A DNA stretch of 53,412 nt, taken from NCBI GenBank assembly GCA_029859385.1, contig JAOUDF010000001.1:1-53412 (forward strand), read 5' to 3'. A program made the position numbers and the translations under genes. The notes under the pieces are model-generated. The model saw only the letters and a program-made list of their open reading frames with translations, had not been told where the DNA came from and did no database searches. This document shows, piece after piece, positions 34,953 through 52,218 of the stretch (positions are counted from its first letter, which is position 1; every line of letters starts with the position of its first letter). The DNA comes from Nitrospirota bacterium (lineage in GTDB: Bacteria > Nitrospirota > JAOUDF01).

Positions 34953-34965
34953 TCGACGGAAGCAG

Positions 34966-36666
34966 ATGATGAAGAAAAAGCTTGCTGAAATCCTGGAAGA
35001 GATGGGCTTCATCGATGCCGACCAGATGAGAGGGCTGCTCCCCCTCGCTGAGGAAGCGGGCAAGAAGCTTGGGACGCTCCTGCTTGAAAAAGGGGTGGTG
35101 ACCGATGTCCAGCTGGCCCAGGCACTGGCGGCCCAGCGGGGGATGCGTTACCTCGACCTGACCGGTTTCCGGATATCGCCGGTCTTCTTCGAGTCGATAC
35201 CGGTGGATATCATGTACCGCTACCAGTTCGTCCCCTGCGAGGAGAAAGACGGACGGCTTATCGTGGCCATCGCCGACCCGGGCGACCTCTTCAGGATGGA
35301 CGAGCTGGAGGTCCTGCTGGAGATGCCGGTCGATTTCGTGGTCTCCACGGCGCGGGAGATCGGCGAGACGCTGAAGCGAAGCGAGGGGACCCAGGCGATC
35401 CTCAAGGAGGTGTCGGAGGACTTCGTCATCGGCGCAGCCGCCGAGGACGAGGAAACGGTCCTCGCTGAGGATCTGATCAAGGGTACCAGCCCCATCATCA
35501 AGCTGGTGGACACCATCGTCCTCAACGCGATCCAGAAGCGGGCCAGCGATATTCATATAGAGGCGACCGACAAGGGGGTAATCGTTAAATACCGTATCGA
35601 CGGCGTCCTCTACAATGCCATGGACCCCATCGACTCCCAGCACCACCGCACCATCGTCTCCCGCATCAAGGTCATGTCCGAACTCGATATCGCCGAGACG
35701 CGGATCCCGCAGGACGGCCGCTTCAAGGTCCGGCTCAAGAACAAGGGGATCGACTGCCGTGTCTCCATACTGCCCAGCGTCTTCGGCGAGGACGTGGTCA
35801 TCCGTATCCTCGACAAGGAATACCTGATGACCGAGTTCGCGCAGCTCAAACTGGAGCCGCTCGGCTTCGACGAGGAGGACCTGCGCAAGTTCAGGAAGAG
35901 CATCCTTGAGCCCTACGGCATGGTGTTGGTGACCGGCCCTACGGGAAGCGGCAAGACCACGACGCTCTACGCCGCCATCTCGGAGATATATACGGACGAG
36001 GACAAGATCATCACCATCGAAGACCCGGTGGAATACCAGTTGCGGGGCATTCTGCAGATACCGGTCAACGAGAAGAAGGGGCTTACCTTTGCGAGGGGAC
36101 TGCGCTCCATCCTCCGCCACGACCCCGACAAGATCATGGTGGGAGAAATCCGCGACCCCGAAACGGCCCAGATAGCCGTCCAGTCGGCCCTTACCGGTCA
36201 CCTCGTCTTTACCACGGTGCATGCCAACAATGCCTTTGACGTCATCGGCCGCTTCACCAACATGGGGATCGAGCCGTACAATTTTGTCTCGTGCCTTAAC
36301 TGCATCCTGGCCCAGCGTCTGGTGCGTTCGATCTGCCTCAACTGCAAGACGACGGTGGAACATCCCGAACAGGTTTTTGTCGATGCCGGCCTGGACTACA
36401 ACAACTACCGGGACCATCCTTTCTATGAGGGCAAGGGGTGTGTCGAGTGCAACTGGACGGGGTACAAGGGGCGGCAGGCCATTACCGAATTTCTCGACCT
36501 TTCCGACCGCATCCGCGAACTGATCCTCGACAAGCGGCCGTCGTCGGAGATCCGTCGCATTGCCGTGGAAGAGGGGATGACGTCTCTGAGGGCTTCGGCA
36601 GTGAGAAAGGTGCTGGCGGGGATTACTACCATCAAGGAAATCAACAGGGTCACCTTCGTTGAATAG
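34966..36666 (+). CDS. gspE: T2SS/T4P assembly ATPase (GspE/PilB/MshE family) with N-terminal MshEN-type domain
   Basis: Walker A VTGPTGSGKTTT, Asp box, Walker B MVGEIRD, tetracysteine CLNCKT...CVECNWTGYKGR. N-terminus KLGTLLLEKGVVTDVQLAQALAAQ. Confidence 0.92.
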   Translation: MMKKKLAEILEEMGFIDADQMRGLLPLAEEAGKKLGTLLLEKGVVTDVQLAQALAAQRGMRYLDLTGFRISPVFFESIPVDIMYRYQFVPCEEKDGRLIVAIADPGDLFRMDELEVLLEMPVDFVVSTAREIGETLKRSEGTQAILKEVSEDFVIGAAAEDEETVLAEDLIKGTSPIIKLVDTIVLNAIQKRASDIHIEATDKGVIVKYRIDGVLYNAMDPIDSQHHRTIVSRIKVMSELDIAETRIPQDGRFKVRLKNKGIDCRVSILPSVFGEDVVIRILDKEYLMTEFAQLKLEPLGFDEEDLRKFRKSILEPYGMVLVTGPTGSGKTTTLYAAISEIYTDEDKIITIEDPVEYQLRGILQIPVNEKKGLTFARGLRSILRHDPDKIMVGEIRDPETAQIAVQSALTGHLVFTTVHANNAFDVIGRFTNMGIEPYNFVSCLNCILAQRLVRSICLNCKTTVEHPEQVFVDAGLDYNNYRDHPFYEGKGCVECNWTGYKGRQAITEFLDLSDRIRELILDKRPSSEIRRIAVEEGMTSLRASAVRKVLAGITTIKEINRVTFVE

Positions 36667-36704
36667 TCGATAATGTTGCCATACGGGAGATAACGGGTTT
36701 CGCT

Positions 36705-37661
36705 ATGATCTTTTTTTCTTCGACGGCGCCATCGGTGGGCATTGAAGTTACTGCCACCTCCCTCAGGGGGGTACGGTTGGCTGCAAAGGGGCGGCAACGG
36801 GTGGTGGCGGCCAGGGCCTTCGTGGACCTGCCGTCCGGCCTGGTTACCGGGACCTTCAGCCGACCGAACGTAGCCGACGGCGCTCTTTTCCGGGAGCACC
36901 TGGCGCGTCTTTGCACCAATCTCGGTGCCGGACAGGACAGGGTAGCTCTTGCCCTTCCCGATGCCGCGGCCAGGGTGCATCTTATGGCCTTTGAGACCCT
37001 CCCGCGCAAGGAGAGTGAGCTGCGGGATATTATCGTCTGGCGGCTCAAGCGGGACAACCTCCTGCCCTTTGAACCCGAGGAGGCCCGCGTCGTCTATCAG
37101 ATCATGGGCGGCGAGAAGGCCAAAGGGGAGATTCCCGTATTGGCGTCGATCATGAGACGTGATGTGCTTGAGCAGTATGTCTCTCTGTGCCAGGAGGCCT
37201 CGCTGGAGCCGATGACGGTGGATATCGCGTCGTTTCAGGGCGCCAATTTCTTCCACGACGAGATGCGGCGGCATGTCCCCGGCAGTGAAACCAGGGCGCT
37301 TGTTCAGTGTGAGGAAAAGCGGGCCAGCCTCATGGTCTTCGATGGTGATATCCTTGTCTTTTTCCGTTCCAAGGAGACGGGGGCGGGGACGGAAGGGGCT
37401 GCCGATGCCGTAATGGCAACATTGCAGTCGTCGCTGCACTATTACAATGAGCAGCGGAAGAATGAAAAGCCGATTGCGGCGTATTGTATTGCCGGCCATG
37501 AAAAGAGGATGGACTGGTGCGGGTGGCTGCGAAATGAACCCGGAGTCCGCCTGATCTCGCTGGATGCGGAAAAGTGCGTGGAGCGGGAGGCTGGCGTTTC
37601 GGAAGACCGGTCCGGTGAATACTGCGCGGCGACAGGGGCGGCGCTGGGGAACAGGGGATAG
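36705..37661 (+). CDS. PilM-like actin-fold assembly protein
   Basis: 318 aa. N-terminus VGIEVTATSLRGVRLA. Position directly before PilN/PilO-like genes. Weak but consistent PilM/GspL-cytoplasmic-domain pattern. Confidence 0.6.
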   Translation: MIFFSSTAPSVGIEVTATSLRGVRLAAKGRQRVVAARAFVDLPSGLVTGTFSRPNVADGALFREHLARLCTNLGAGQDRVALALPDAAARVHLMAFETLPRKESELRDIIVWRLKRDNLLPFEPEEARVVYQIMGGEKAKGEIPVLASIMRRDVLEQYVSLCQEASLEPMTVDIASFQGANFFHDEMRRHVPGSETRALVQCEEKRASLMVFDGDILVFFRSKETGAGTEGAADAVMATLQSSLHYYNEQRKNEKPIAAYCIAGHEKRMDWCGWLRNEPGVRLISLDAEKCVEREAGVSEDRSGEYCAATGAALGNRG

Positions 37662-37675
37662 GCAGGGGAGCCCGG

Positions 37676-38266
37676 ATGAGATTTCAGACCAATTTTCTGA
37701 GAGAACGGGAACAGCAGACAAGGAGGGCAGGTACGGCGCTCTCCGTGGTGTTGGTGGTTCTTGTCCTGATCTTTCTCGCCAATATCGTCATGTACTTCAC
37801 CTATCGGGACAGGGCGGGCGAGGCGAGCAAGCAGGAAGCCCTTCTCGAAAACCAGATACGGCAGTATGAGCAGGAGGTGAAGGCGGGGCCGGACCGAGCA
37901 TTCCTCGCCCGTTTCAAGGGGGAGGTGGCTTTTGCCAATTCGCTCATTCTCAGAAAGAGTTTTTCATGGACCAGCCTGCTGGGCCGGATCGAGAAGGCCG
38001 TGCCCAAGGGCATATCCGTGACGAAGATTGCGCCGGATTTCAAGACCATCGAGGGTAAGGAGGAGGAAGAGGTCGTCATGCTGTCCGGCACGGCGCGGTC
38101 GCTGGAGGCCTTGACAGGGCTCATTATCAACCTTGAGGATTCGGTGCATTTCCGGGAGGTGTTTCTCCTGAACCAGTCCTTAAGAGACGACAAAAGCGGA
38201 CGCGAGCTGATTGCCTTCGATATCCGTATGCAGTACCTCCCCGGCGGCGAGGAGGGCGGCGAATGA
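37676..38266 (+). CDS. PilN-like bitopic inner-membrane protein
   Basis: N-terminus INFL-like (FQTNFLRERE), a single TM (ALSVVLVVLVLIFLANIVMYF), then a coiled coil. 196 aa. Confidence 0.6.
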   Translation: MRFQTNFLREREQQTRRAGTALSVVLVVLVLIFLANIVMYFTYRDRAGEASKQEALLENQIRQYEQEVKAGPDRAFLARFKGEVAFANSLILRKSFSWTSLLGRIEKAVPKGISVTKIAPDFKTIEGKEEEEVVMLSGTARSLEALTGLIINLEDSVHFREVFLLNQSLRDDKSGRELIAFDIRMQYLPGGEEGGE

Positions 38267-38862
38267 AATTTTTTCTCCAAAAAGAGCGCAAGCTTGTGAT
38301 GGCGACCATCGCCCTCGCCGTGGTGAACCTGTTGTTTTACCTCGCGCTGGTCTATCCGATGCAGAGCATGGTCCACAACAAGGAAGACGACTATAGCCGT
38401 GAGCGGCAGCGTCTGGTGGACCTCAGAAATCAGGCGGCACTGGCAAAAACGGTGGTGGAGAGCAAGGCGGCGCTTGCCGAATTGTGGGAGCGGTTGCCCG
38501 AGAAGGATGATCTGCCGGCGTTCATAGGCAGCTTCCACGCCCTTGCGAAGGAGTACGACCTGAGGATTCCTACGGTAAAGTACGAGCCTAAAAAGGAGAA
38601 GGGGGAGGTAATGACCAGTCTCTTCATTACCTTGCCGGTGACGGGGAATTATCCCGATATCCGCGGTTTTATCCAGGACATGGAGTTGTCCGACAGGCTG
38701 ATCATGCTCGAGAATATCGGGATTTCCGCGTCGGGCAGCGACGGCGGTGGAGGCACCCAGCTTCAATTGACCATGACGACCTATATCAGGCCCGCGATCA
38801 TGCCGGAGTTTACGGTGCCGATGCCTGCCGAACAACAGGAAAGAACGAGAGGCAGAAGGTGA
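38263..38862 (+). CDS. PilO/GspM-like bitopic inner-membrane protein
   Basis: Single TM (ATIALAVVNLLFYLALVYP), a coiled coil, then a ferredoxin-like tail (LFITLPVTGNYPDIRGFIQDMELSDRLIMLENI). ATGA overlap upstream. Confidence 0.6.
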   Translation: MKFFLQKERKLVMATIALAVVNLLFYLALVYPMQSMVHNKEDDYSRERQRLVDLRNQAALAKTVVESKAALAELWERLPEKDDLPAFIGSFHALAKEYDLRIPTVKYEPKKEKGEVMTSLFITLPVTGNYPDIRGFIQDMELSDRLIMLENIGISASGSDGGGGTQLQLTMTTYIRPAIMPEFTVPMPAEQQERTRGRR

Positions 38863-39440
38863 GAGGAAAACAGCTGCTCTTTAGCGCACTTCTGGTAATG
38901 CTGTTGGGGCTGGCTGCCTACCGCTTCTATTCCCCTGATATGCCTGCGGGCGTTTTGAGGGCTCCGGCGGAAGGGAGGCGGGCTGCCGCAGACCTCAAGG
39001 ATTATACGGTGAGGATCGATCTTTTGCGGGTGGCCCGGGAGGAATTGGCGGATGGGGTCGTCAATATCTTTGCTTCCATTTCCCGATCGGGTGGGTCGAA
39101 AGGCGAAAAGGCGGGGGCAAAAGGGGCCGATGAAGTAAAGCCCCCCGCTCCGTCCGAACAGCCGGCGGTACAGCTTCCGCCGCCTCCTCCGCCGAAGACG
39201 CCGGAGCAGCTGGCCGCCGAGCGGTCGGTGCAGGAACTGGAGCGTTTTCGCTTCCTCGGGTTTGTGCGAAAGGGCGACGGCAGGAGCCTGTTTCTGGGCC
39301 GGGGCGACGAACTGCTCGTGGTGGGAGAGACGGAGAAGGTAAAAGGGCTTTACAATATCAAGCTTATGGGCAAGGATTACCTGATCCTGGCGGACCCGGC
39401 AACCGGGGTGGAAAAAAGGATCGAATTGACAGGGAAGTAG
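38859..39440 (+). CDS. PilP/GspC-like protein (N-terminal anchor, Pro-rich linker, C-terminal beta domain)
   Basis: GTG start overlapping the upstream stop. TM LLFSALLVMLLGLAAY, PPPPPPKTPEQ linker, FRFLGFVRKGDGRSLFLGRGDELLVV tail. Sits directly before the secretin. Confidence 0.45.
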   Translation: MRGKQLLFSALLVMLLGLAAYRFYSPDMPAGVLRAPAEGRRAAADLKDYTVRIDLLRVAREELADGVVNIFASISRSGGSKGEKAGAKGADEVKPPAPSEQPAVQLPPPPPPKTPEQLAAERSVQELERFRFLGFVRKGDGRSLFLGRGDELLVVGETEKVKGLYNIKLMGKDYLILADPATGVEKRIELTGK

Positions 39441-39502
39441 GAAAATCCTTATCCTGTAACGATGGCATTGAGAAGATTGCGAAATCATGGTGAGGAGGCG
39501 TA

Positions 39503-42238
39503 ATGGGCGCTTTTAAGCGGGTGGGAGTATTGCTGGCGATGCTGGCGGCATTGGCCGGATGCGGTACCTCCCGGGTCGTCGAACGGGGAGAGACCTACCT
39601 TCAGAACCAGCAGTGGGACCTGGCGTGGGCGGAATACAAGGATGCCTACCAGCGAGACCCATCGAACAAGACTTACCGGGCGGGATACGAGCGCGCAACC
39701 ATCGAGGCCACCAACCTTCATCTGAGGCAGGGGGCGGAAGCCCTTCGTCAGGGCCGGTTTGAAGAGGCGATCGAAGAACTGAAGAAGGGGCTGATGGTCT
39801 CTCCGGCCCATGAAGGGATGCAGACTGCCATGAGGGAGGCCCTGGCGAAGAAGGAGGCCAGGGAGCGCTATGCAACGGGAAGGTCCCTCGCCGACGGCGG
39901 CAGGCTCAAGGACGCGATGAGGGAGCTGAAGAAGGCCTCGGAACTTGATCCTGACTACCAGGAACCCGGGAAGCTGATCGGGCAGATAGAGGATGTTCTT
40001 TCGAAAGAGAAGTCCGAAGATCCGCTGACCCTGGCATCGGACAAGCCCATTACCCTCAACTTCAAGAATACCAATGTTAGGGACGCCTTCGAACTGCTGG
40101 CCAAGATGGCCAGCATCAACGTCCTCTTCGATGAAGAGGTGCGGTCGCAACAGGTAACGGTCTTTGCCAAGGACATCACCTTCAAGCAGGCCCTCCGGCT
40201 CCTCCTTTCGACCAACAAGCTTATTATGAAGCGGGTGACGCGGGATACCATCATCATCATCCCGAAGAACCGGGCCAAGATAGACCAGTATCAGGACCTT
40301 CAGATCCGCACCTTCTACCTCAACAATATCGAGGCGAAGGATATGGTCAATATCCTCAGGACCATGCTGGAGACCAAGAAGATACTGATCAATGCCAAGA
40401 GCAATACGATCATCCTGCGGGACTCCCCGGAGAAGCTGAAGCTGGCGGAGAAGATCATCGAGGCCAACGACCGCGCCGATGCGGAGATCATGCTCGACGT
40501 GGAAATACTGGAAGTCGGCCGCACCGACACCTACAAGTCGGGCATAAAGCTGGGTTCCACGACTCCTGCGGCGGCAACCTGGATCAAGGATTCGGTGGGG
40601 ACCATAGGGACTACAGGCATCGACCTGTTTACCCTGAAAAATCTTGGACCTGAGTCGTTCCTCTTTGTTCTGCCCAGCCTTACCATCGACCTGCTCAAGA
40701 CTAATTCCAACGCCAAGACCCTGGCCAATCCCAAGCTGCGGGTCATCCACAAGAAGCCCGCCAAGATACTCATAGGCCAGAGGGTGCCGATCCAGGTCTC
40801 GACGACCACAACCTCCGCAGGCACCTCGTCGGGGACGACCTCGTCGAACTTTGAATACAAGGACGTTGGTATCAAGCTCAATGTGGAGCCCGATGTCCAT
40901 CTCAACAACGAGATCACCATGAAGCTGGGCCTCGAGGTGAGCACCCTGGGGAACCTTGTGGAGTTCGGCGGCGGTTCCAAGCAGTATATCTTCGGTACCC
41001 GCAGTGCCGACACGGTGGTACAGCTCCGGGATGGAGAGACCACCATCATTGGCGGCCTTATACAGGATGACGAGAGAAAGACGGGGAACCGCATCCCCGG
41101 CCTTGCCGATGCACCGGTGGTCGGGCGGATGTTCGCGGCACGGGATGATGAGACGGTCAAGACCGATATCCTCATGTCGATCACTCCGCATCTGGTGAGG
41201 AGGATGGAGCTGCCCAGTGTCGACGTCCAGTCGTTCTGGTCGGGGACCGACGACTCCTACGATACCGAGCCGGTCTTCTACTTTGACGACGAGGTCGAGA
41301 TTCCCGATGATGCACCGGCTGGCGCGCCGACGGTCAAGATGCCCGGCAAGACCCCGGCACAGGCTCCTCCGACGCCGATGCCCGCTCCCACGCTTCTTCC
41401 CGCTCCGGCCGTGAAGCCCCAGGCAGCTCCGGCGCCTGCCGCCCCGGTTACGCAACCGGCCCCGGCTCCTGCACCGCTGGCCCCTGTTCGTCCCGAGCCT
41501 GTTCCTGCACCGGCGCCCGCTCCAGCTCCCGCACCCGCTCCAGCCGCGCCTGCTGCTCCCGAGCCTGTAAAGGCCCCGGAGCCGCCGTCTCAGCCGACCT
41601 CTGCCGTCGAGGAACCGGAACCGGCCCCGCCGGCAGTTGAGGAAGTTCAGCCTGTAGCAAAGGCGGCAGCTCCCGCCCCCCAACCCCAACTGGTGGCGCC
41701 TGCTCCTGCTCCTCAATCGGTACCCGTACCAGCTCCCGCGCCTGTGCCCGCTCCTCAGGTACCGGCAGTTCCCGTGACTGCACCGTTGCCAACGGCAGAG
41801 GCAGCGACCCCGCTGTCGCTCTCCCTGGCGAGCATAGGGGTCAAGCCGAACAGTATCCAGATGACTGCCGGGGCCTCGGTAGGGGTTGAGATCACCGCGG
41901 CTGACGTGAAGAACCTTGCCCTTGCGGATATCTCCGTGACCTACGACCCCGAGGTCGCCTCTTTCCAGAATATTACCGAAGGGGGATTTCTCAGGAGCGA
42001 CGGCAAGCCGACCTCCTTCCTTTTTTCCGTAAACAGCAAGGCCGGAAAGGTAGATATTTCCCTCAGCCGGGTGGGAATGGAAAAAGGGGTGAACGGTGCG
42101 GGGACGCTGGCATTCCTGGTGTTTCAGGGGAAAAAGGCAGGCGATTCAACGATAAACCTGAAAGTCAACAAGCTGCAGAATGCAGACCGGGGTAACCTCG
42201 ACCACAAGGTGGTCAATGCCAGCCTGACGGTAAAGTAG
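39503..42238 (+). CDS. secretin lipoprotein with N-terminal TPR region, secretin core, long Pro/Ala linker and C-terminal cohesin-like domain
   Basis: Lipobox LAALAGC. TPR-like N-terminus. Secretin_N (ITLNFKNTNVRDAFELLAKMASINVLFDEEV). Secretin core (VLANPKLRVIHKKPAKILIGQRVP...TTIIGGLIQDDE...IPGLADAPVVGRMF). PA-rich 41306-41810. Cohesin-like 41811-42235 (ISVTYDPEVASF...GTLAFLVFQGKKAGDSTINL). Confidence 0.85.
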   Translation: MGAFKRVGVLLAMLAALAGCGTSRVVERGETYLQNQQWDLAWAEYKDAYQRDPSNKTYRAGYERATIEATNLHLRQGAEALRQGRFEEAIEELKKGLMVSPAHEGMQTAMREALAKKEARERYATGRSLADGGRLKDAMRELKKASELDPDYQEPGKLIGQIEDVLSKEKSEDPLTLASDKPITLNFKNTNVRDAFELLAKMASINVLFDEEVRSQQVTVFAKDITFKQALRLLLSTNKLIMKRVTRDTIIIIPKNRAKIDQYQDLQIRTFYLNNIEAKDMVNILRTMLETKKILINAKSNTIILRDSPEKLKLAEKIIEANDRADAEIMLDVEILEVGRTDTYKSGIKLGSTTPAAATWIKDSVGTIGTTGIDLFTLKNLGPESFLFVLPSLTIDLLKTNSNAKTLANPKLRVIHKKPAKILIGQRVPIQVSTTTTSAGTSSGTTSSNFEYKDVGIKLNVEPDVHLNNEITMKLGLEVSTLGNLVEFGGGSKQYIFGTRSADTVVQLRDGETTIIGGLIQDDERKTGNRIPGLADAPVVGRMFAARDDETVKTDILMSITPHLVRRMELPSVDVQSFWSGTDDSYDTEPVFYFDDEVEIPDDAPAGAPTVKMPGKTPAQAPPTPMPAPTLLPAPAVKPQAAPAPAAPVTQPAPAPAPLAPVRPEPVPAPAPAPAPAPAPAAPAAPEPVKAPEPPSQPTSAVEEPEPAPPAVEEVQPVAKAAAPAPQPQLVAPAPAPQSVPVPAPAPVPAPQVPAVPVTAPLPTAEAATPLSLSLASIGVKPNSIQMTAGASVGVEITAADVKNLALADISVTYDPEVASFQNITEGGFLRSDGKPTSFLFSVNSKAGKVDISLSRVGMEKGVNGAGTLAFLVFQGKKAGDSTINLKVNKLQNADRGNLDHKVVNASLTVK

Positions 42239-42245
42239 GCCGAAA

Positions 42246-42716
42246 ATGGAGAGGACCGGAATCAGCCGCAACAGCGGGCTGACGCTTATCGAACTGGTGG
42301 TCGTCGTGGCGGTGCTGAGTATCCTGGCCGCCGTTGCGCTGCCGGTGGCCAAGGCCACGGTAAAGCGGACCAAGGAGATAGAGCTGCGCCGCACCTTGCG
42401 GGAGATGCGCACCGCCATCGACGAGTACAAGAAGTTCTACGATGAAAAGAAGATTTCCCAGATTTCGGGCGGCACCGGCTATCCCAAGGACCTCGATACG
42501 CTGGTGCAGGGTGTGGACATTGTGGGACAGGTGAATCTGAAGAAGAAGTTTCTCAGAAGGATCCCGCCCGATCCCATAACCGGTACGACCGAGTGGGGGA
42601 TGCGGTCGTACGCCGATGCCCCCGACTCAACGGCATGGGGGGGGGAGGATGTCTATGACATCTACACCACCAGCGAGGAAACGGCCCTGGACGGCTCACA
42701 GTACAATACATGGTAA
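42246..42716 (+). CDS. GspG-like pseudopilin (prepilin-type N-terminal cleavage/methylation domain)
   Basis: SG|LTLIELVVVVAVLSILAAVALP prepilin signature with Glu5. Downstream YPKDLDTLV...IPPDPITG resembles the GspG body. Confidence 0.82.
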   Translation: MERTGISRNSGLTLIELVVVVAVLSILAAVALPVAKATVKRTKEIELRRTLREMRTAIDEYKKFYDEKKISQISGGTGYPKDLDTLVQGVDIVGQVNLKKKFLRRIPPDPITGTTEWGMRSYADAPDSTAWGGEDVYDIYTTSEETALDGSQYNTW

Positions 42717-42736
42717 TGCTCTGGACGCGATCGGTT

Positions 42737-42812
42737 GTCATTCCGGCGAAAGCCGGAATCCAGCCTTCCCGAGTATCACAAGGCTACTGGACACCGGTTT
42801 TCACCGGTGTGA
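42737..42812 (+). repeat. REP-like bipartite palindromic element, copy 2
   Basis: GTCATTCCGGCGAAAGCCGGAATCCAG (42737-42763) ... CTGGACACCGGTTTTCACCGGTGTGA (42787-42812), in the gap between the two pseudopilin genes. Confidence 0.85.
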
Positions 42813-42836
42813 CGTCTTTTACGAAACTATATTGAT

Positions 42837-43223
42837 ATGACACCATTAAATAAAAACCAGCGCGGTTTTACGCTTCTCGAACTGATGATCGTCATCGCCA
42901 TCGTGGGTATTCTGGTGACGCTGGCCGTCCCCAGTTTCAGGACGGCGACGATAAAGGCTCGCGAGGCGGTCCTCAAGGAAGACCTCTACGTCATAAGGAG
43001 CGTCATCGACCAGTATTACGCCGATAATGGCACCTATCCCCCCACTCTCCAGGACCTTGTGGCCAAACAGTACCTCAGAAGCATTCCCATTGACCCGTTT
43101 ACCTCGTCTGCAAGCACGTGGGAGGAGGTCATCGATACGGCGGCGGAAACGTCCGGGGTGTTCGATGTCAAGAGCGGCTCGGACAAGGTCGGTCTCAATG
43201 GCGTACCCTACAGGGAATGGTAG
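42837..43223 (+). CDS. GspG-like pseudopilin 2
   Basis: QRG|FTLLELMIVIAIVGILVTLAVPSF with Glu5. YYADNGTYPPTLQDLV..YLRSIPIDPF is classic GspG-like. Confidence 0.85.
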   Translation: MTPLNKNQRGFTLLELMIVIAIVGILVTLAVPSFRTATIKAREAVLKEDLYVIRSVIDQYYADNGTYPPTLQDLVAKQYLRSIPIDPFTSSASTWEEVIDTAAETSGVFDVKSGSDKVGLNGVPYREW

Positions 43224-43809
43224 GCCGGGGCGTCTGCCCTGGATTTCATATCTCAAATTTCATACCTCAGATTTTTGCCTGGACAATCGCGGCTTCACCT
43301 TTGTCGCGCTGGCCGTCATCATCTTCATCATGGGGATATCCCTCCTCGCGGTAAGGCCCACCTGGACCGTGATCATGAAGATAGAGAAGGAGCAGGAGCT
43401 TCTCTATGTCGGAAAGGCGTTCAAGGATGCCATAAAGCGCTATCATGATGCCGGCCCACCCAACAACAAGACATTGCCTGCGCGCCTGGAAGACCTCCTC
43501 AGCGATCCCCGTTCACCAAGCGCGAAAAAATATCTGCGGAAGATATATCGCGACCCCATGACGGGCGAGGACGACTGGGTCGTGGTGATGGACGGGGCCC
43601 AGCGCATAAGGGGTATCCACAGCCGCAGCGAGGAGGAGCCCTTCAAGCAGGACCACTTCCCCGACGAATTTCAGCAGTTTGCCAACAAGAAGAAATACAG
43701 CGAGTGGGTGTTCGAGTATAATCCCGTGCCGGCCGGGACAACGACCGGCCAGGGTCAGTCGACGGCTACCGGAAATCTGACCACGCAAACCTCTCCCTCA
43801 TCGCAGTAA
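43198..43809 (+). CDS. atypical pseudopilin-like protein (prepilin-like hydrophobic N-terminus but no Glu5; start uncertain)
   Basis: NRG|FTFVALAVIIFIMGISLLAV, then ...YHDAGPPNNKTLPARLEDLL...YLRKIYRDPMTG (GspG-like body). The only in-frame ATG before the TM is 43198 (26-nt overlap with the upstream gene). CTG 43279 is an alternative. Confidence 0.55.
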   Translation: MAYPTGNGRPGRLPWISYLKFHTSDFCLDNRGFTFVALAVIIFIMGISLLAVRPTWTVIMKIEKEQELLYVGKAFKDAIKRYHDAGPPNNKTLPARLEDLLSDPRSPSAKKYLRKIYRDPMTGEDDWVVVMDGAQRIRGIHSRSEEEPFKQDHFPDEFQQFANKKKYSEWVFEYNPVPAGTTTGQGQSTATGNLTTQTSPSSQ

Positions 43810-44203: not shown

Positions 44204-47200
44204 ATGCTCCAACGCTCAGCATTCCGGAAGTCCCTGCTTGTAACTGTCTCATCATTCGTTCTTCTGGCATCGACCGCTTTCGCCGACGTAGCACCCGTAA
44301 CCGTCTCTTCCGTCCAGTCCTCCGCCAACACCGGCGCGGCGGCCACCAGCATACCCATCGACGTGCCTCCGGGGCGCAAAGGCATTCAGCCGAATCTCGC
44401 GCTTACCTATAATTCCAACAGCCCCAACGGCTGGCTTGGGGTGGGGTGGAGCCTCGACATGGGCGCCATTCAGCGGTCCACCAAGCGGGGGGTCAGCTAT
44501 AGCGCTAACGACTATGTTTTTACCTCGGGCGGTGGTTCGTCTGAACTTGTGGCGCGTGGGGATTGGGGCAGCAACTACTACGGCGCGAAGAGCGAAGGGG
44601 CGTTTTCGAAATACTATTACGATTCATCCACCGGCGGCTGGGTCGTTACCACCAAAGACGGCACCAAGTACTACTACGGCACGACCGCTGCGTCACGGCA
44701 GGACAGCGCGCTTGGCGTGTTCAAGTGGAGCCTCGACAAGGTGGTGGATACCAACGGCAACTACATGACGGTGAGTTACTGGAAGGACCAGGGGGAGATA
44801 TACCTCGACCGGATTGATTACACGGGGAATGGTGGGGTAAGCCCGACGAATTATGTGAAGTTTTATCGAGAGGCGAGGACTGATGCGCCAGCCATGTATG
44901 GAAGTGGCTCTAGCGTCAAAACTGCCTATCGCTTGAAGACAATTGATATTGTGGCGAGTGGAAGCAGGGTACACGTCACTACGTTGTCATATGTAAATAG
45001 CGGGACATCAAATGTTTCTCTCCTGCTTGGTGTGCAGCATTTCGGTGAAGATGCAACAATAGATGCAGGCGGTACGGTAACAAGTGGTTCTTCCTTGCCG
45101 GCGACAAGCGTTGCAAATCACACCGCTGTCAATGGTTCATACACTGGTTGGAAGTTTCCCTATATTCTCAGGTCGGTCTGCTCGCCATATGTGGGGGATT
45201 TTAATGGTGATGGTAAAGCTGATGTATTAAGAGCGTGTGATGATCCTAATGATAACTATGTATTCCTCTCAACTGGCACTGGCATTACACCCGGCTGGCC
45301 GTTTAATTATAATCTTCGGGCGTCCAGCGTGCCTTATCTAGGTGATTTTAACGGTGATGGGAAAACTGATGTTCTAAGGGTCCATGACAATCCGGCATAC
45401 AACTATGTGTTTCTTTCGACAGGCAGCGGGTTTGATCTCACGCTCAACTGGCCGTTTAATTATAATTTGAAAACAGGCTGTGAAGGTCGCCTGGGTGATT
45501 TCAACGGAGACGGTAAGACAGATGTGCTGCGGGCTTGCGACAATGCAGCTTCAAATTATGTATTTTTGTCCACAGGCAGCAGCTTTGTTGAAGGCTGGCC
45601 GTTTGGCTATAATCTTCGGGCAGCCAGCGTGCCTTATCTAGGTGATTTTAACGGTGATGGGAAAACTGATGTTCTAAGGGTGCATGACAATCCTGCGTAC
45701 AATTATGTGTTTCTTTCAACGGGCAGCGGGTTCGATCTCACGCTCAACTGGCCGTTTAATTATAATATGAAAACAGGCTGTGAAGGTCATTTGGGTGATT
45801 TCAACGGAGACGGCAAGACGGATGTGCTCAGGGCTTGCGACAATGCAGCTTCAAATTATGTATTTTTGTCCTCGGGCAGCCGCTTTATTGAAGGCTGGCC
45901 GTTTAATTATAATCTTCGGGCGTCCAGCGTGCCGTACCTGGGTGACTTCAACGGAGATGGAAAGACGGATGTTTTGCGTGCACATGACAATCCTGCATAC
46001 AACTATGTGTTTCTTTCAACGGGCAACGGGTTTGATCTTTCGCTCAATTGGTCGTTCAATCGTGATATTAAAACAACCTGTCTTCCGTATTTAGGTGATT
46101 TCAATGGTGAGGGTAAGGTTGATGTACTTAGGGCTTGCGCTAATGCATGGTTGAATGATGTCTGGTTGTCAACACCATCTGTAACAGACTTAATCTCCAC
46201 CCTCACCAACGGCCAAGGCGCCACCACCACCATCACCTATAAGCCTTCATCGTCCTACACCAACGGCCTGCTCCCCTTCATCGTCCAGACCGTGCAATCC
46301 ATCGCTGTCAACGACGGCAACGGCAACACCTCCACCACCAACTACACCTATTCCGGCGGCCAGTACGACCCCACCGACCGCGAGTTCCGCGGCTTCAGTT
46401 ACGTAAAGGCCACCGCGCCCAACGGCGCCACCACCGAGACCTGGTTCAAGCAGGACGCAGTATACAAGGGGCTGCCCTACGACCAGATCGTCAAGGACTC
46501 ATCGGGCAACACCTACAGCCGCACGGTGAACAGCTATCTCTCAACCACGCCCTACACCGGCGTCAGTTTCCCGTATCTTTCCCAGCGTGATGACTACGTT
46601 TACGACGGCGGCACGACCTACAAGCGCCTCACCACCGGCTTCACCTACGACAGCTACGGCAACCTCACCCGCAAGTACCACTACGGCGATGCGGCCGTAT
46701 CCGGCGACGAGCGGGACGAGAACACCGAGTATAGCTACGACACCGCCAACTGGATCGTCTCACTACCCAGCCACAGCTGGGTGCTCGACTCCGGCGGGGT
46801 AAAGAAGGCCGAAGGCTGGTTTGCCTATGATGTAAAAGGCAACCTCCTCACCGAGACCCGCTGGTTAAGCGGCGGCGCCAATCCGGTGACCACCTACACC
46901 TACGACAGCTACGGCAACCGCGCAACGGTGAAGGACGCCAAAAACAATACCACCACCATCGCCTACGACACCGTTGCCCAGACCTACCCTGTAACCATCA
47001 CCAATGCCCTGGGGCATTCGGCCACCAAGACCTATGATTACCGCTACGGCAAGCCCCTCACCGAGACCGACGCCAACGGCAACAGCACGTCGTACACCTA
47101 CGACGTCTTCGGCCGGGCAACCAGGGTCACCGGCCCGCTGGATTCCGGCTCCACCTACGGTACCGTGACTTACTCCTACGATAACTTCGGCACCGTCGGC

Positions 47201-49912
47201 AGCCAGAGGGTAACCACCTACGCCACCGAGCAGAGCGGAACATCAAACGTCATCTGGAGCGAGAGCTACTTCGACGGCCTCGGCCGCACCTTCAAGACCC
47301 GCAAAGAAGGCCCCGACAGCAAGGTAATCGTAAGCCAGAATACCTTTGACCAGCGCGGCCTCGTCACCGCCAAGTCGCTGCCCTACTTCGAAGGGCAGGA
47401 GACCGCCCGCTGGACCACCTTTACCTACGACGCCGTAGGCCGGGCAACCCGGGCCACCAATCCCGACGCCACCTATGCCACCACCGCCTACGACAAAGGC
47501 CGCACCACCATCATCAACGCCAACGGTCAGCAGAAGGTGGAAGAGAAAGACGTCTACGGCAGGCTGGTAAAGGTGGAGGAGTATAACGGCGGCTCGCTCT
47601 ACGCCACCACCAATTACCAGTACGACGTAATGGGTAACCTCAGAGGCACCACCGACGCCAAGGGCAACCAGAGCGTCATCAACTACGACACCCTGGGCAG
47701 AAAGACCTCCATGAACGACCCCGACATGGGAAGCTGGACCTACGCCTACGATGCCAACGGCAACCTCACCACCCAGACCGACGCCAAGGGCCAGACCATC
47801 ACCTTTGCCTACGACGCGCTCAATCGCATAACCCTTAAGGATTACCCCGCCGGGGCCGGTACCGACGCCGTCTACACCTACGACGAAACCACCTCCACCA
47901 ACGGCAAGGGCAGGCTCACCACCCTCACCGACGCATCCGGAACCAGCAAGTACTGGTACGACGCCATGGGCCGGGCCACCAAAAGCACCCGCACCATCGA
48001 CAGCGTAGCCTACACCACCGAGACCACCTACGACGCCCTGTCGCGCATCACCAGCGTCAAGTACCCCGACAACGAGACCGTCACCTACAGCTACGACACC
48101 GGCGGCAACCTCTCACAGATAGGGAGCTACGGCACCTACGCAGGCTACAACGCCCTCGGCCAGGCAAGCACCATCACCTACGCCAACGGCGTCACCACCA
48201 CCTACCAGTATCTCAGCACCAACAACCGACTCTACAGCATCACCACGGGCATCGGTACCCGGGGGCTCATGAACACCAGCTACGCTTACGACAACGTCGG
48301 CAACATCCTCGGCATCACCGACTACCTCGACAGCGGCAGAAACCAGACCTTCGGCTACGACCACCTCAACCGCCTCACCCAGGCCGCCAGCACCGCCTAC
48401 GGCACGCTAAGCTATGGGTATAACGAGATCGGCAACATGACCGCCAAGGAAGGGGTAATCTACACCTATCCCGCAAACGGCAGCGCCCGGCCCCACGCCG
48501 TCACCGCCACCTCCGACGGCAAGAGCTACGCCTACGACAACAACGGCAACATGACCACCGACGGCCTGCGGACCATCGCCTACGACTACGACAACATGCC
48601 GTCGTCCGTAACCCTTGGCGCAACCACCACCAGCTTCGTCTACGACGCCTCGGGCCAGCGGGTAAAGAAGATCACGCCGACCGCCACCACCGTCTACGTC
48701 GGCAAGCTCTACGAGTGCGTGGGTACAAGCTGCACCAAGTACATAATGGCAAACGGCAACAAGCTGGCGTGGAAGAACAGCGCGGGCACCTTCTACTACC
48801 ATCAGGACCACCTGGGCTCCAGCCGGGTCATCACCGACGCCAGCGGCACCAAGGCCGAGGAGATCACCTACCTGCCCTACGGCGCCACCCTCACCGACAG
48901 CGGCAACGGCACGGTATCGGTGGAGCACCGCTTCACCTCGCAGGCGTACGATGCCGAGACGGGGCTTTACTACTACAATGCGAGGTACTACAATCCGGGG
49001 CTGGGGAGGTTTGTGAGTGCGGATAGTATTGTGCCCGACCCTGAAGACCCGCAGGCGTTTAACCGGTACAGCTATACGCTGAACAACCCGGTGATTTATA
49101 CTGATCCGACGGGGAATGCGACTGAGTTCTACGCGACGGTTTCGCAGACAGCTTATAGTGGTTCGAGTATCTCGATCAGTTCAAGCTCGTCTTGGTTCTA
49201 TACCCCGAGCTTTTACAGGCCTGCACCGGCACCTGCAACGAAGCCAGCCCCAAAACCAGCACCAGCGCCTGCGCGGAGCAGTAACGTTGCAAGCACTGTC
49301 GGGAACAGCTATAGTAATTTCTCTCTGCCGACGCCGGTTGTAAATTCGATAAGCGGCCTTGTAAATAATGTGCTCATTCCTGTCGGGAGCGCGGTTATTC
49401 CGGGCTGGGGCGCCTATGACGAGTTTTCGGAAGGCAATTACCTTTATGGCCTGTTCTCCCTTGGAACAGATCTGCCTATATTTAAGCCGGCAAAGTGGCT
49501 AGTAAAAGGTGCAGGTGCTGTCGGGGATGCAATAAAGGGCGCAAATAGGTTTGCGACTCGGCCAGGTGAGGCCGTATTCTGGTCAGGCATTCGGAATGGT
49601 GATGTAGCCGCTTCAAAATGGGTTGCTCAACACGGAGGCGCAACCCTTGAGACAACAGTGGCTGCTCGCGGAATCGAATTACCCGTTTGGGATCCGAGTA
49701 GTCCAACGGTAGTTGACGCTTGGCGACAGGCGTCTAAGACCTTTGCGACTGGGGCGAGTGGGAATGTACGCGTCCTACAGACAGATTATGTCCGCATAAA
49801 TTCGGCGTGGGCAGAGGTTGAGTTTCCTGCGCTTAAAGCCAATCCGAACGTGACCTCAATTAGAGCGGTAAACCCGGAGACCGGCGTGGAGACGTTGTTA
49901 TGGTCGAAGTAA
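44204..49912 (+). CDS. Sec-signal SpvB-N / FG-GAP beta-propeller / TcdB-mid / RHS-repeat polymorphic toxin (Tc-toxin B-C fusion-like) with divergent C-terminal cargo
   Basis: Signal peptide MLQRSAFRKSLLVTVSSFVLLASTAFA|DV. SpvB-type GIQPNLALTYNSNSPNGWLGVGWSLDMGAIQRS. Seven GDFNGDGKTDVLR blades. TcdB-mid type YSGGQYDPTDREFRGFSYV. Dozens of YD repeats (YTYDSYGN, YAYDANGNLT). RHS core ARYYNPGLGRFVSADS...NPVIYTDPTGN. Confidence 0.93.
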   Translation: MLQRSAFRKSLLVTVSSFVLLASTAFADVAPVTVSSVQSSANTGAAATSIPIDVPPGRKGIQPNLALTYNSNSPNGWLGVGWSLDMGAIQRSTKRGVSYSANDYVFTSGGGSSELVARGDWGSNYYGAKSEGAFSKYYYDSSTGGWVVTTKDGTKYYYGTTAASRQDSALGVFKWSLDKVVDTNGNYMTVSYWKDQGEIYLDRIDYTGNGGVSPTNYVKFYREARTDAPAMYGSGSSVKTAYRLKTIDIVASGSRVHVTTLSYVNSGTSNVSLLLGVQHFGEDATIDAGGTVTSGSSLPATSVANHTAVNGSYTGWKFPYILRSVCSPYVGDFNGDGKADVLRACDDPNDNYVFLSTGTGITPGWPFNYNLRASSVPYLGDFNGDGKTDVLRVHDNPAYNYVFLSTGSGFDLTLNWPFNYNLKTGCEGRLGDFNGDGKTDVLRACDNAASNYVFLSTGSSFVEGWPFGYNLRAASVPYLGDFNGDGKTDVLRVHDNPAYNYVFLSTGSGFDLTLNWPFNYNMKTGCEGHLGDFNGDGKTDVLRACDNAASNYVFLSSGSRFIEGWPFNYNLRASSVPYLGDFNGDGKTDVLRAHDNPAYNYVFLSTGNGFDLSLNWSFNRDIKTTCLPYLGDFNGEGKVDVLRACANAWLNDVWLSTPSVTDLISTLTNGQGATTTITYKPSSSYTNGLLPFIVQTVQSIAVNDGNGNTSTTNYTYSGGQYDPTDREFRGFSYVKATAPNGATTETWFKQDAVYKGLPYDQIVKDSSGNTYSRTVNSYLSTTPYTGVSFPYLSQRDDYVYDGGTTYKRLTTGFTYDSYGNLTRKYHYGDAAVSGDERDENTEYSYDTANWIVSLPSHSWVLDSGGVKKAEGWFAYDVKGNLLTETRWLSGGANPVTTYTYDSYGNRATVKDAKNNTTTIAYDTVAQTYPVTITNALGHSATKTYDYRYGKPLTETDANGNSTSYTYDVFGRATRVTGPLDSGSTYGTVTYSYDNFGTVGSQRVTTYATEQSGTSNVIWSESYFDGLGRTFKTRKEGPDSKVIVSQNTFDQRGLVTAKSLPYFEGQETARWTTFTYDAVGRATRATNPDATYATTAYDKGRTTIINANGQQKVEEKDVYGRLVKVEEYNGGSLYATTNYQYDVMGNLRGTTDAKGNQSVINYDTLGRKTSMNDPDMGSWTYAYDANGNLTTQTDAKGQTITFAYDALNRITLKDYPAGAGTDAVYTYDETTSTNGKGRLTTLTDASGTSKYWYDAMGRATKSTRTIDSVAYTTETTYDALSRITSVKYPDNETVTYSYDTGGNLSQIGSYGTYAGYNALGQASTITYANGVTTTYQYLSTNNRLYSITTGIGTRGLMNTSYAYDNVGNILGITDYLDSGRNQTFGYDHLNRLTQAASTAYGTLSYGYNEIGNMTAKEGVIYTYPANGSARPHAVTATSDGKSYAYDNNGNMTTDGLRTIAYDYDNMPSSVTLGATTTSFVYDASGQRVKKITPTATTVYVGKLYECVGTSCTKYIMANGNKLAWKNSAGTFYYHQDHLGSSRVITDASGTKAEEITYLPYGATLTDSGNGTVSVEHRFTSQAYDAETGLYYYNARYYNPGLGRFVSADSIVPDPEDPQAFNRYSYTLNNPVIYTDPTGNATEFYATVSQTAYSGSSISISSSSSWFYTPSFYRPAPAPATKPAPKPAPAPARSSNVASTVGNSYSNFSLPTPVVNSISGLVNNVLIPVGSAVIPGWGAYDEFSEGNYLYGLFSLGTDLPIFKPAKWLVKGAGAVGDAIKGANRFATRPGEAVFWSGIRNGDVAASKWVAQHGGATLETTVAARGIELPVWDPSSPTVVDAWRQASKTFATGASGNVRVLQTDYVRINSAWAEVEFPALKANPNVTSIRAVNPETGVETLLWSK
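45293..46130 (+). repeat. in-frame 300-bp tandem DNA repeat (two propeller blades per unit), about 2.8 units, inside the RHS gene
   Basis: GGCTGGCCGTTT... restarts at 45293, 45593 and 45893 (exact 300-nt period). Units 1 and 2 differ at roughly one position in twelve by eye. The region is visibly more AT-rich than the flanking YD-repeat DNA. Confidence 0.85.
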
Positions 49913-50217
49913 ATAGTTTGAAATCACCTCAACTTGTTGAAGCTATCGTCGTTTGGACAGGTTGGGGCAGGGCTCAGATGCCGAGTCGTGATGATGCGCG
50001 GCTGGTAGATCATTTCGGCGCGGATGTTGCGACCAAACTGCTGCCGATAATCAAGGCATTGGAGGACGATTTTTATTCGTCCAACGCGCGATTTATTGCG
50101 AGCGATATTGCGGAAATGGAGAAACTGGCGGCGGCGCAATTTAGGCAGAAACAGCCGGAAGTCGCCGAAGAAATCGTTAAAGCTTTTTCGTGGTGCTATA
50201 CTTTTGACTTCAGGTAG
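49900..50217 (+). CDS. candidate cognate immunity protein of the RHS C-terminal toxin
   Basis: 105-aa ORF whose ATG (49900) overlaps the toxin's last 13 nt. GGAGAC lies ~7 nt upstream. Soluble and helical, with no family recognised. Position is typical of polymorphic-toxin immunity genes. Confidence 0.55.
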   Translation: MVEVNSLKSPQLVEAIVVWTGWGRAQMPSRDDARLVDHFGADVATKLLPIIKALEDDFYSSNARFIASDIAEMEKLAAAQFRQKQPEVAEEIVKAFSWCYTFDFR

Positions 50218-50403: not shown

Positions 50404-51450
50404 GGGGTCAATTCTTTATTATTGACAAAACCGTCTGCTGAAAGATTTATAGAGCCATGTCCCGTCCCTTGAGAATCCAGTATCCCGGTGCAGTCTATCA
50501 CGTCACCTGCCGCGGCAACGAACGGAAGGACATCTTCCGCGACGACGCCGACCGGGAGCGGTTTGTGTCGCTATTGGAGCAGTCTGCGGAGATATACTCG
50601 GTGACGGTGTACGCCTATGTGCTGATGACGAACCATTTTCATCTGCTGGTGGAGACGCCGCTGGGCAACCTTGGTGAATTCATGCGGCGGTTCAATATCA
50701 GCTATACGGGGTACTTCAACCGTCGGCACGGCCGGGTGGGGCATTTGTACCAGGGGCGCTACACAAGCCTTTTGGTGGACAAGGATGAATACCTGACGAC
50801 GGTGTCGCGGTATATCCATCTGAACCCGGTGCGGACAAAGGTATGGAGCGGCAAGACGGTGGAAGAGAAAGCCTCTTTCCTTGACGGCTACCAATGGAGC
50901 AGCCTGCCGGGGTATTGCGAGAAGAAGAAGCGAGAGAAGTTTATCGATTACGCGCTTGTGCTTGAGCCCTACGGGGGAGACAGTGCCGGCGCCCGACGCC
51001 GGTATCGGGATGCGCTGCTGGGCGAGATATCGTCGCCGCAGGAGTTGAAGAAGCAGGTGGTGGGGCAGAGCATCCTTGGGGGCGATGAGTTTGTCCGCTG
51101 GGTGAAGGAAAAGCTTGGCGATCGGGGCGCCGACCGGGAATGCCCGCCACTGCGGGCGGTGGTGTCATATAACGCACAGGATGAAATACTTGCGGCCGTG
51201 GCGTCGGCGACCGGCAAGACGATAGGGCAGATAAAGTCCGATCGGGGTGTTGTACGTCAGATAGCCATGGAGCTTTTGGCGCGGGTTGGGGGCCTCAAGG
51301 GCAAGGAGATAGGCGAACTCTTGGGGGTTGACTACAGCACGGTAAGCGTGGGGCGAAAGCGGCTGCGGGACACACTAGCGAGCGACAGGGCGGCAAAGCG
51401 GCTTTTGGAGAGGGTTGAGGGGACTTTGTCAATAATAAAGAATTGACCCC
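50404..51450 (+). mobile_element. Y1-transposase unit bracketed by perfect 26-bp inverted repeats (RAYT/REP-like arrangement)
   Basis: GGGGTCAATTCTTTATTATTGACAAA (50404-50429) is the exact reverse complement of TTTGTCAATAATAAAGAATTGACCCC (51425-51450). Each copy is itself a GTCAAT-N8-ATTGAC hairpin. The right copy overlaps the transposase stop codon. Confidence 0.7.
50457..51446 (+). CDS. IS200/RAYT-like HUH (Y1) transposase with C-terminal DnaA-C-like HTH domain
   Basis: YHVTCRGNERKDIF, HUH motif MTNHFHLLVETP, catalytic-Tyr region VSRYIHLNPVR. The C-terminal ILAAVASATGKTIGQIKSD...ELLGVDYSTVSVGRKRL resembles the DnaA domain IV HTH. Confidence 0.8.
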   Translation: MSRPLRIQYPGAVYHVTCRGNERKDIFRDDADRERFVSLLEQSAEIYSVTVYAYVLMTNHFHLLVETPLGNLGEFMRRFNISYTGYFNRRHGRVGHLYQGRYTSLLVDKDEYLTTVSRYIHLNPVRTKVWSGKTVEEKASFLDGYQWSSLPGYCEKKKREKFIDYALVLEPYGGDSAGARRRYRDALLGEISSPQELKKQVVGQSILGGDEFVRWVKEKLGDRGADRECPPLRAVVSYNAQDEILAAVASATGKTIGQIKSDRGVVRQIAMELLARVGGLKGKEIGELLGVDYSTVSVGRKRLRDTLASDRAAKRLLERVEGTLSIIKN

Positions 51451-51535
51451 CCGTGGGGGGCCCCCTATGGAGGACCCCCAGCATAGGGAGTATATTTTAC
51501 TTGCTCCCACTTTGGGAGCATGGTAAGGTTTGCCT

Positions 51536-51829
51536 ATGCGAATTATAGCCCGGAAGGCCTTGAGAGAGTTCTGGTCGCTGCACTCAGACGCCGAGCAGCC
51601 ATTGAGGGCATGGTATGAAGATGCAAGGCATGCTGAATGGGAAACCCCGTCGGACATCAAGGCTGCCTATCGCAATGCCAGTATTGTTGGCAACAACAGG
51701 GTTGTGTTCAATATTAAAGGTAACACTTACCGCCTTGTCGTCGCGGTGAACTATGCTGTGGGTGTGGTTTATATCCGCTTCGTTGGCACGCATCAGGAAT
51801 ACGACAGGATTGACGCTGCGATTGTTTAG
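51536..51829 (+). CDS. higB: type II toxin HigB-family mRNA interferase
   Basis: MRIIARKALREFW...AWYEDARHAEWETPSDIKAAYRNASIVGNNRVVFNIKGNTYRLVVAVNY...VYIRFVGTHQEYDRI is the HigB (toxin-first) family pattern. Confidence 0.8.
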   Translation: MRIIARKALREFWSLHSDAEQPLRAWYEDARHAEWETPSDIKAAYRNASIVGNNRVVFNIKGNTYRLVVAVNYAVGVVYIRFVGTHQEYDRIDAAIV

Positions 51830-51843
51830 GATGGAGAAACAAG

Positions 51844-52218
51844 ATGCTGAAAATTAAACCAATCAGGACTTCAAAGGACCATGAGGCGGCGCTTGCCGAG
51901 ATTGATCGGCTGTTTAGCGCTACGCCGGGCACACCGGACGGAGATCGTCTGGAGATACTGATAACGCTGGTTGAGGCCTATGAGGAGAAGAACCAGCCTG
52001 TTCTCCCCCCCGATCCTGTCGAAGCAATACTGTACCATATGGAGAGCCGGGGTCTTACAAGAAGCGACCTCGAACCTTATATCGGCAGCAGGGCCAGGGT
52101 CTCGGAGGTGTTAAACCGCAGACGCCCGCTTTCCATTGAAATGATCCGACGCCTGCATCAAGGATTGGGTATCCCACTGGAATCTCTGATTCAGCCGTAT
52201 CAACTGAAGGCGGCGTGA
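51844..52218 (+). CDS. higA: HigA-family antitoxin (C-terminal XRE-type HTH)
   Basis: KPIRTSKDHEAALAEIDRLF...PDGDRLEILITLVEAYEE and the C-terminal HTH LTRSDLEPYIGSRARVSEVLNRRRPLSIEMIRRL. Starts 14 nt after higB. Confidence 0.8.
   Translation: MLKIKPIRTSKDHEAALAEIDRLFSATPGTPDGDRLEILITLVEAYEEKNQPVLPPDPVEAILYHMESRGLTRSDLEPYIGSRARVSEVLNRRRPLSIEMIRRLHQGLGIPLESLIQPYQLKAA

Follow-up and report, generated by a model that had tools for sequence, protein, structure and literature searches.

A predicted CD38-like NAD(P)+-hydrolysing toxin domain and a candidate immunity gene at the 3' end of an RHS gene in a Nitrospirota genome

Two bacterial toxins of the ADP-ribosyl cyclase (ARC) superfamily have been described in detail: Tac1, the C-terminal domain of a Streptococcus parasanguinis LXG toxin of the type VIIb secretion system (T7SSb; PDB 9OUF; Colautti, Kim & Whitney, JBC 2025, PMC12356396), and ARCtox of the ARCtox-ARCimm pair (PANA_2924/2923) of Pantoea ananatis, which is carried on a PAAR protein belonging to a type VI secretion system (T6SS; PDB 9RO8; Martinkus et al., JBC 2025, PMC12605009). 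Both enzymes split NAD+ and NADP+ by hydrolysis into ADP-ribose(-phosphate) and nicotinamide, both are toxic in E. coli, and each is neutralised by the product of its downstream gene (PMC12356396, PMC12605009). RHS proteins appear among the ARC carriers listed in both papers (PMC12356396, PMC12605009). Here we analyse a 53,412-nucleotide stretch of contig JAOUDF010000001.1 from a Nitrospirota bacterium (hereafter the window, to which positions refer unless another locus is named), in which the gene for a 1902-amino-acid RHS protein ends in an ARC domain and overlaps an open reading frame (ORF) of 105 amino acids. An earlier note, made from the DNA letters, had interpreted this arrangement as an RHS-borne ARC toxin with a candidate immunity gene, and that interpretation is supported by the present work. 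Its remark that ARC cargo was known from computational prediction only has been overtaken by the structures and activities in the two 2025 papers; its further remark that no RHS-borne ARC toxin had been characterised still appears true, as our literature search found no later paper characterising one.

We put the probability that the ARC domain is an NAD(P)+ hydrolase yielding ADP-ribose and nicotinamide at roughly 0.85, on the grounds of homology, fold and residue conservation. In a phmmer search against PDB sequences, both Tac1 (9OUF_A, E=3e-25) and ARCtox (9RO8_A, E=1.8e-19) matched over the whole domain (query residues 32-151 of 153), and at the level of sequence this likeness to the solved ARC toxins is far beyond chance. 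Residues 1770-1902 were modelled with AlphaFold2 on the basis of 57 homologues, and the model reached a predicted local distance difference test (pLDDT) score of 91.1 and a predicted template modelling (TM) score of 0.85. When this model was submitted to Foldseek, 9OUF ranked first (TM 0.85), then 9RO8 (TM 0.81), with a root-mean-square deviation of 1.9 Å, followed by about 50 entries of Aplysia cyclase and human CD38 at E~1e-4 and a query-normalised TM of about 0.6. The predicted model and its structural matches give the domain the two-lobed minimal CD38 core fold, as the earlier note had proposed.

The active site is equally well preserved. Mutation of W490, E516, W529, W540, S544, R564 or E573 lowered or abolished NAD(P)+ hydrolysis by Tac1 (PMC12356396), and all seven residues are identical in the RHS protein, where they correspond in order to W1793 through E1873 (Table 1). 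The seven are identical in ARCtox too, and the ARCtox residues W273, E299, W323 and E356 are likewise conserved in the Nitrospirota domain. Across the 57 homologues E1873 is invariant and E1816 is conserved in at least 90%, and the mapped catalytic Glu, second Glu, Trp, Ser and Arg residues are all either invariant or at least 90% conserved. The motif blocks by which the earlier note had recognised the domain are present (ATLETT, 49640-49657; LPVWD, 49679-49693; AWRQ...VLQ, 49718-49780; SAWAEVEFPAL, 49802-49834), and the two codons it had singled out as Glu do encode E1816 and E1873, the counterparts of Tac1 E516 and E573 (CD38 E146 and E226). The AVFWSG block also exists, at 49571-49588, although the start given for it, 49574, is that of the V, a slip of three nucleotides.

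Set beside Tac1-Tci1, the Nitrospirota pair shares the minimal CD38-core fold, 38% identity over 126 columns, the seven active-site residues, a second Glu of the kind that favours ADP-ribose over cyclic ADP-ribose (cADPR), and the arrangement of a C-terminal polymorphic-toxin cargo with a small downstream gene. It differs in its carrier, which is an LXG/T7SSb protein of a Gram-positive organism for Tac1 and an RHS cocoon with a probable Sec signal here; in its partner, which is Imm74 for Tac1 and an unrelated helical protein of 105 residues here; and in lacking the short 'GIGG' insertion that follows the FWSG strand in Tac1. With ARCtox-ARCimm it has the fold and the W/E/W/E catalytic set in common, whereas ARCtox is delivered on a prePAAR/transmembrane domain/PAAR spike with an EagR chaperone, and a near-identical Pantoea locus carries a 75-residue immunity gene annotated as Imm74. 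The metazoan enzymes, Aplysia cyclase and human CD38/BST1 (PF02267), share the two-lobed core fold and the arrangement of catalytic Glu and Trp; however, they are about 250 residues long as opposed to about 125, bear disulfide-rich extra helices that are absent here, score a target-normalised TM of only about 0.33, and serve in signalling rather than toxicity.

The remainder of the protein has the layout of a polymorphic-toxin carrier. YD repeats lead into an RHS repeat-associated core at residues 1556-1637, where TIGR03696 scores 75.8 bits (cut-off 32.5); this core ends in DPxG before a variable C-terminal domain, and the DPTGN junction falls exactly where the earlier note had placed it (residues 1634-1638), followed, as it had also stated, by exactly 264 residues. 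Ahead of the RHS shell, SpvB, FG-GAP propeller and TcdB_midN domains (PF03534, PF13517/PF01839 and PF12256, all above cut-off) provide the BC arrangement of Tc toxins. The protein thereby resembles the RHS/TcB-TcC cocoons (Photorhabdus TcdB2-TccC3; T6SS Rhs effectors) in its SpvB, propeller, TcdB_midN and YD-repeat shell as well as in a core that ends in DPxG before variable cargo. It departs from them in having a probable N-terminal signal peptide and, as cargo, a predicted ARC NADase in place of an ADP-ribosyltransferase or nuclease. The signal-peptide region runs from a positive N-terminus through a hydrophobic core (19-residue Kyte-Doolittle maximum 1.88) to an AFA motif. Between the core and the ARC domain there is, in order, a Ser-rich stretch, a Pro/Ala linker PAPAPATKPAPKPAPAPA (49220-49273) and a Gly-rich stretch whose moderate hydrophobicity is highest near residue 1725; no family in Pfam or NCBIfam matched this region, and a transmembrane helix within it was rejected, as the 19-residue Kyte-Doolittle maximum of 1.41 is too low.

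The toxin domain and the 105-residue ORF travel together. A genome scan, with one genome per species and the alignment trimmed to the toxin domain, turned up an ARC domain of the same subclade at 23 loci, and a homologue of the ORF lies immediately downstream in every one (23/23), which bears out the immunity position assigned to the ORF in the earlier note. These loci span at least eight phyla, with representatives among the Deltaproteobacteria, Acidobacteriota, Chloroflexi, Actinomycetota (including the isolate Demequina subtropica), Verrucomicrobiota, Planctomycetota, Moraxellaceae and Rhodanobacteraceae. As the earlier note had read it, the ORF overlaps the RHS stop by 13 nucleotides (49900-49912), its ATG lying four codons before the toxin stop, and exactly this overlap recurs in most loci across phyla (L001-L027), so that the junction appears both conserved and translationally coupled. 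In 15 of 20 other cassette carriers tested, an Rhs_assc_core match that exceeds its cut-off lies upstream of the ARC domain, which makes RHS the usual vehicle for this subclade. The carriers also include a LysM-containing protein and short stand-alone forms, and in one locus (L001) the cassette stands at the end of a 4168-residue RCC1-repeat protein with an RHS core, with 62% identity in the toxin and 66% in the ORF. The stand-alone ARC proteins are about 150-260 residues long, with a hydrophobic, signal-like N-terminus and no large carrier (L008, 5812-6662; L021, 5638-6665; P0008, P0014, P0020, P0024); at L008 and L021 their genes still precede the homologue of the candidate immunity gene. 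The sequence between RHS core and ARC domain differs among loci, with Gly/Ala-rich hydrophobic stretches often recurring.

The proposal in the earlier note of a swapped module is upheld by this occurrence of the same toxin and ORF on unrelated carriers, of which the RCC1-repeat protein is an example. It had also pointed to base composition, and the tail and the ORF are indeed less GC-rich (0.537 and 0.491) than the YD-repeat shell (46201-49117; 0.61). It should be noted that the gene's FG-GAP part, at 0.463, falls below even these values, with the rest of the gene at 0.59-0.61, and hence uneven GC content is not peculiar to the cassette.

The ORF itself is deposited as OEV28_00225, a 'hypothetical protein', with a GGAG 8 nucleotides upstream of its ATG, and is predicted to encode an all-helical, six-helix protein (model pLDDT 93.4). 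At E<=1 it matches nothing in Pfam or NCBIfam, nor do 30 members of its family at E<=10; a profile of the family found no match among PDB sequences (best E 0.83), and Foldseek found none for the model (best E=1.2, globin-like helical bundles at TM<0.3). At other ARC loci, namely Pantoea PAAR-ARC, Paraburkholderia CdiA-ARC and Massilia, the downstream gene is annotated by PGAP as Imm74 (75-82 amino acids). An hhalign comparison of the 105-residue family with three PGAP-annotated Imm74 proteins gave a probability of 0.2%, and the ORF therefore belongs to a different family. That family comprises at least 259 clusters at 90% identity, every one labelled 'hypothetical', and at least 526 representatives at 50% identity; tblastn of the candidate immunity protein against plasmids found none. 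A minority of members are 187-315 residues long with the 105-residue domain at the C-terminus (P0219, P0223, P0229, P0257, P0265, P0323, P0354), and these may represent fusions, immunity domains in tandem or wrongly called start sites.

Taken together, we propose that the RHS polymorphic-toxin gene ends, on its 3' side, in a toxin/immunity module of two genes. The 1902-residue protein would be exported by Sec, its YD-repeat shell, capped by the SpvB, FG-GAP propeller and TcdB-mid domains, enclosing the C-terminal cargo. By analogy with known RHS and TcC proteins, the RHS core probably cuts the chain after DPTGN, which would free a fragment of about 264 residues consisting of a flexible, partly hydrophobic linker and the minimal CD38-like domain. 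In the cytoplasm of the target cell, NAD+ or NADP+ would bind in the cleft between the helical and beta-sheet lobes, where W1793 and W1840 would position the substrate and E1873 would act as the essential catalytic Glu; the presence of the second Glu, E1816, would lead to hydrolysis of the cyclic intermediate instead of its release. The net conversion of NAD(P)+ to ADP-ribose(-2'-phosphate) and nicotinamide would deplete the cofactor and stop growth. The 105-residue protein, presumably made by translational coupling with the toxin, is most likely the immunity protein of the toxin's producer, and would bind the toxin, probably over the active-site cleft, thereby shielding the producer and its kin.

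Several observations weigh against this reading. The Pfam family of the metazoan enzymes, Rib_hydrolayse (PF02267), matches the toxin domain at 19.4 bits (E=7.3e-4), below the gathering threshold of 25 and over about 50 residues (profile positions 132-184 of 241), so the profile check suggested in the earlier note was by itself not decisive; although a precomputed PF02267 match is present in several close homologues, we accordingly assign the domain to the bacterial ARC toxin family, and to the ARC superfamily, but not to PF02267. Identity to the characterised ARC enzymes is only 31-38%, and kinetics and the ratio of cADPR to ADP-ribose could therefore differ. The 105-residue protein shows no relation to Imm74, which alone among immunity families has been validated for ARC toxins, and the basis for its assignment as immunity protein is synteny. 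Lastly, T6SS genes, PAAR and VgrG are all absent from the window, and so is any ORF of the size of TcA, the largest other ORF encoding 911 residues.

This last point bears on the identity of the target. The same enzyme might be aimed at a eukaryote (protist, fungus or invertebrate) by way of a Tc-toxin-like BC cocoon rather than at a rival bacterium, an idea that we regard as unlikely yet deserving of attention, given that SpvB, FG-GAP propeller, TcdB_midN and RHS together form the TcB-TcC architecture of insecticidal Tc toxins and that ARCtox is toxic to yeast as well (PMC12605009). Such a cocoon would call for TcA, which is missing from the window but could be encoded beyond it, and the idea sits less easily with the finding of the same cassette on many different RHS proteins of free-living soil and water bacteria.

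A second question is whether the 105-residue ORF might be a chaperone, adaptor, secretion helper for the cargo or co-toxin rather than an immunity protein. Its family is unrelated in sequence to any known immunity family and the evidence for an immunity role is indirect, but a producer of a cytoplasmic NADase needs an inhibitor, and the ORF occupies the canonical immunity position and is toxin-linked on every type of carrier, be it RHS, LysM-containing or short and stand-alone. Solitary copies of the homologue occur as well (L004, L006), one of them within a row of small ORFs. Solitary copies are usual for immunity genes. All this renders a helper or co-toxin role quite improbable, and we retain the immunity assignment. 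The row just mentioned (L004, 3371-6742) comprises seven small ORFs on the same strand (161, 161, 154, 153, 110, 99 and 117 amino acids), had no Pfam matches and no toxin gene called among them, and looks like an orphan immunity-gene island.

The domain could also, in principle, be a cyclase that makes cADPR and serves in signalling or outside the cell, as with the non-toxic Nac1, instead of an NAD-depleting toxin. Bacterial ARC enzymes of the Nac1 type with Sec signals do exist (PMC12356396), and several of the short homologues in our alignment have signal-like N-termini. However, cADPR is released by the E516A mutant of Tac1 and by Nac1, a natural variant that carries Ala at this position and has no immunity gene, while the Glu-bearing enzymes yield ADP-ribose (PMC12356396). 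The RHS protein has Glu at the corresponding position 1816 and is on that account predicted to be an NAD(P)+-depleting hydrolase; its ARC domain moreover stands behind an RHS core with a strictly linked downstream partner, and we consider a cyclase very improbable. A ribonuclease, finally, has next to no probability: 'Ribonuclease' is the depositors' molecule name for 9OUF_A, but it looks like a carried-over genome annotation, the entry being titled 'ADP-ribosyl hydrolase' and the accompanying paper reporting hydrolysis of about 12,000 NAD(P)+ per minute and no RNase work, and we rejected it on the content of that paper (PMC12356396).

Table 1. Coordinates of the features of the RHS-ARC locus in the window
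Feature	Position	Strand	Remarks
Whole polymorphic-toxin gene	44204..49912	+	1902 aa; ORF list, exact look-up, Pfam/NCBIfam architecture
Probable Sec signal peptide	44204..44284	+	MLQRSAFRKSLLVTVSSFVLLASTAFA / DVAP; boundary inferred by eye
SpvB / TcB N-terminal domain	44324..44791	+	residues 41-196; PF03534 E=9.6e-20
FG-GAP beta-propeller region	45150..46060, approximate	+	PF13517 E=9.6e-35, PF01839 E=4.7e-15
TcdB middle/N-terminal domain	46091..46468	+	residues 630-755; PF12256 E=3.1e-24
YD/RHS-repeat shell	46469..48868	+	PF05593, 10 stretches, E=1.1e-38; TIGR01643, NF041261
RHS repeat-associated core	48869..49117	+	ends in DPTGN junction, 49103-49117
Pre-toxin linker	49118..49537	+	residues 1639-1778; composition and hydropathy
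ARC (CD38-like) toxin domain	49538..49909	+	residues 1779-1902; phmmer, model, Foldseek, residue mapping, conservation
Active-site residues of ARC domain, codons	W1793 49580-82; E1816 49649-51; W1829 49688-90; W1840 49721-23	+	
Active-site residues of ARC domain, codons (further)	S1844 49733-35; R1864 49793-95; E1873 49820-22	+	
Candidate cognate immunity gene	49900..50217	+	105 aa; overlaps toxin stop codon by 13 nt; unnamed family

Some further features of the locus may be recorded. Within the FG-GAP region the tandem repeats are almost identical, with GDFNGDGKTDVLR blocks recurring in the translation; the units are about 100 residues each (recurring '...LGDFNGDGKTDVLRVHDNPAYNYVFLSTGSGFDLTLNWPFNYN...'), and their near-identity and low GC content suggest that the region was recently duplicated internally or arose separately. 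Immediately upstream of the RHS gene and on the same strand (33741-43809) lies a cluster resembling type II secretion/type IV pilus (T2SS/T4P) systems, with GspF, a GspE/MshE-N ATPase, PilM and three pseudopilins. Its 911-residue secretin (39503-42238, + strand) combines, unusually, TPR repeats at its N-terminus with a long linker rich in Pro and Ala and a cohesin domain at its C-terminus. A BC-type cocoon with a Sec signal and neither TcA nor a T6SS in the window might use this adjacent T2SS/T4P-like system, a less likely addition to the reading of a new immunity family discussed below. Directly after the candidate immunity gene (50457-52218, + strand) follow an IS200-like Y1 transposase with a DnaA_C-type helix-turn-helix (329 amino acids) and a HigB/HigA toxin-antitoxin pair, neighbours that fit with the RHS locus being mobile or variable at its 3' end. 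PADLOC found nothing in its search for anti-phage defence systems and thus gives no link to one, and scans for promoters and terminators around the gene ends yielded nothing informative.

The public record of the RHS protein (MDH4098986.1, found by exact look-up in a Nitrospirota metagenome-assembled genome) names it only as an 'FG-GAP-like repeat-containing protein', an annotation that misses its toxin content. Our reading extends the ARC NADase family, which was defined experimentally in 2025, to Nitrospirota and to a TcB/TcC-style RHS carrier with a probable Sec signal. The fold, mechanism and toxicity of this toxin family were known already; what is modestly new is the unnamed candidate immunity family. 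As a compact probable inhibitor with a confidently predicted fold and no solved relative, its 105-residue protein is a structural target for the study of how a CD38-like active site is blocked, and the family could serve as a marker in metagenomes for ARC cassettes and orphan immunity islands.

Whether the 105-residue protein is the founding example of an undescribed ARC-toxin immunity family, unrelated to Imm74, without a match among solved structures and locked to one ARC subclade, is in our estimation evenly balanced. Some T6SS-linked ARC toxins have a partner other than Imm74, as modelled for a Duganella protein (PMC12356396), and the family described here may be the same. If the 105-residue protein is indeed an immunity protein of this kind, ARC toxins would have gained at least two independent inhibitor solutions.

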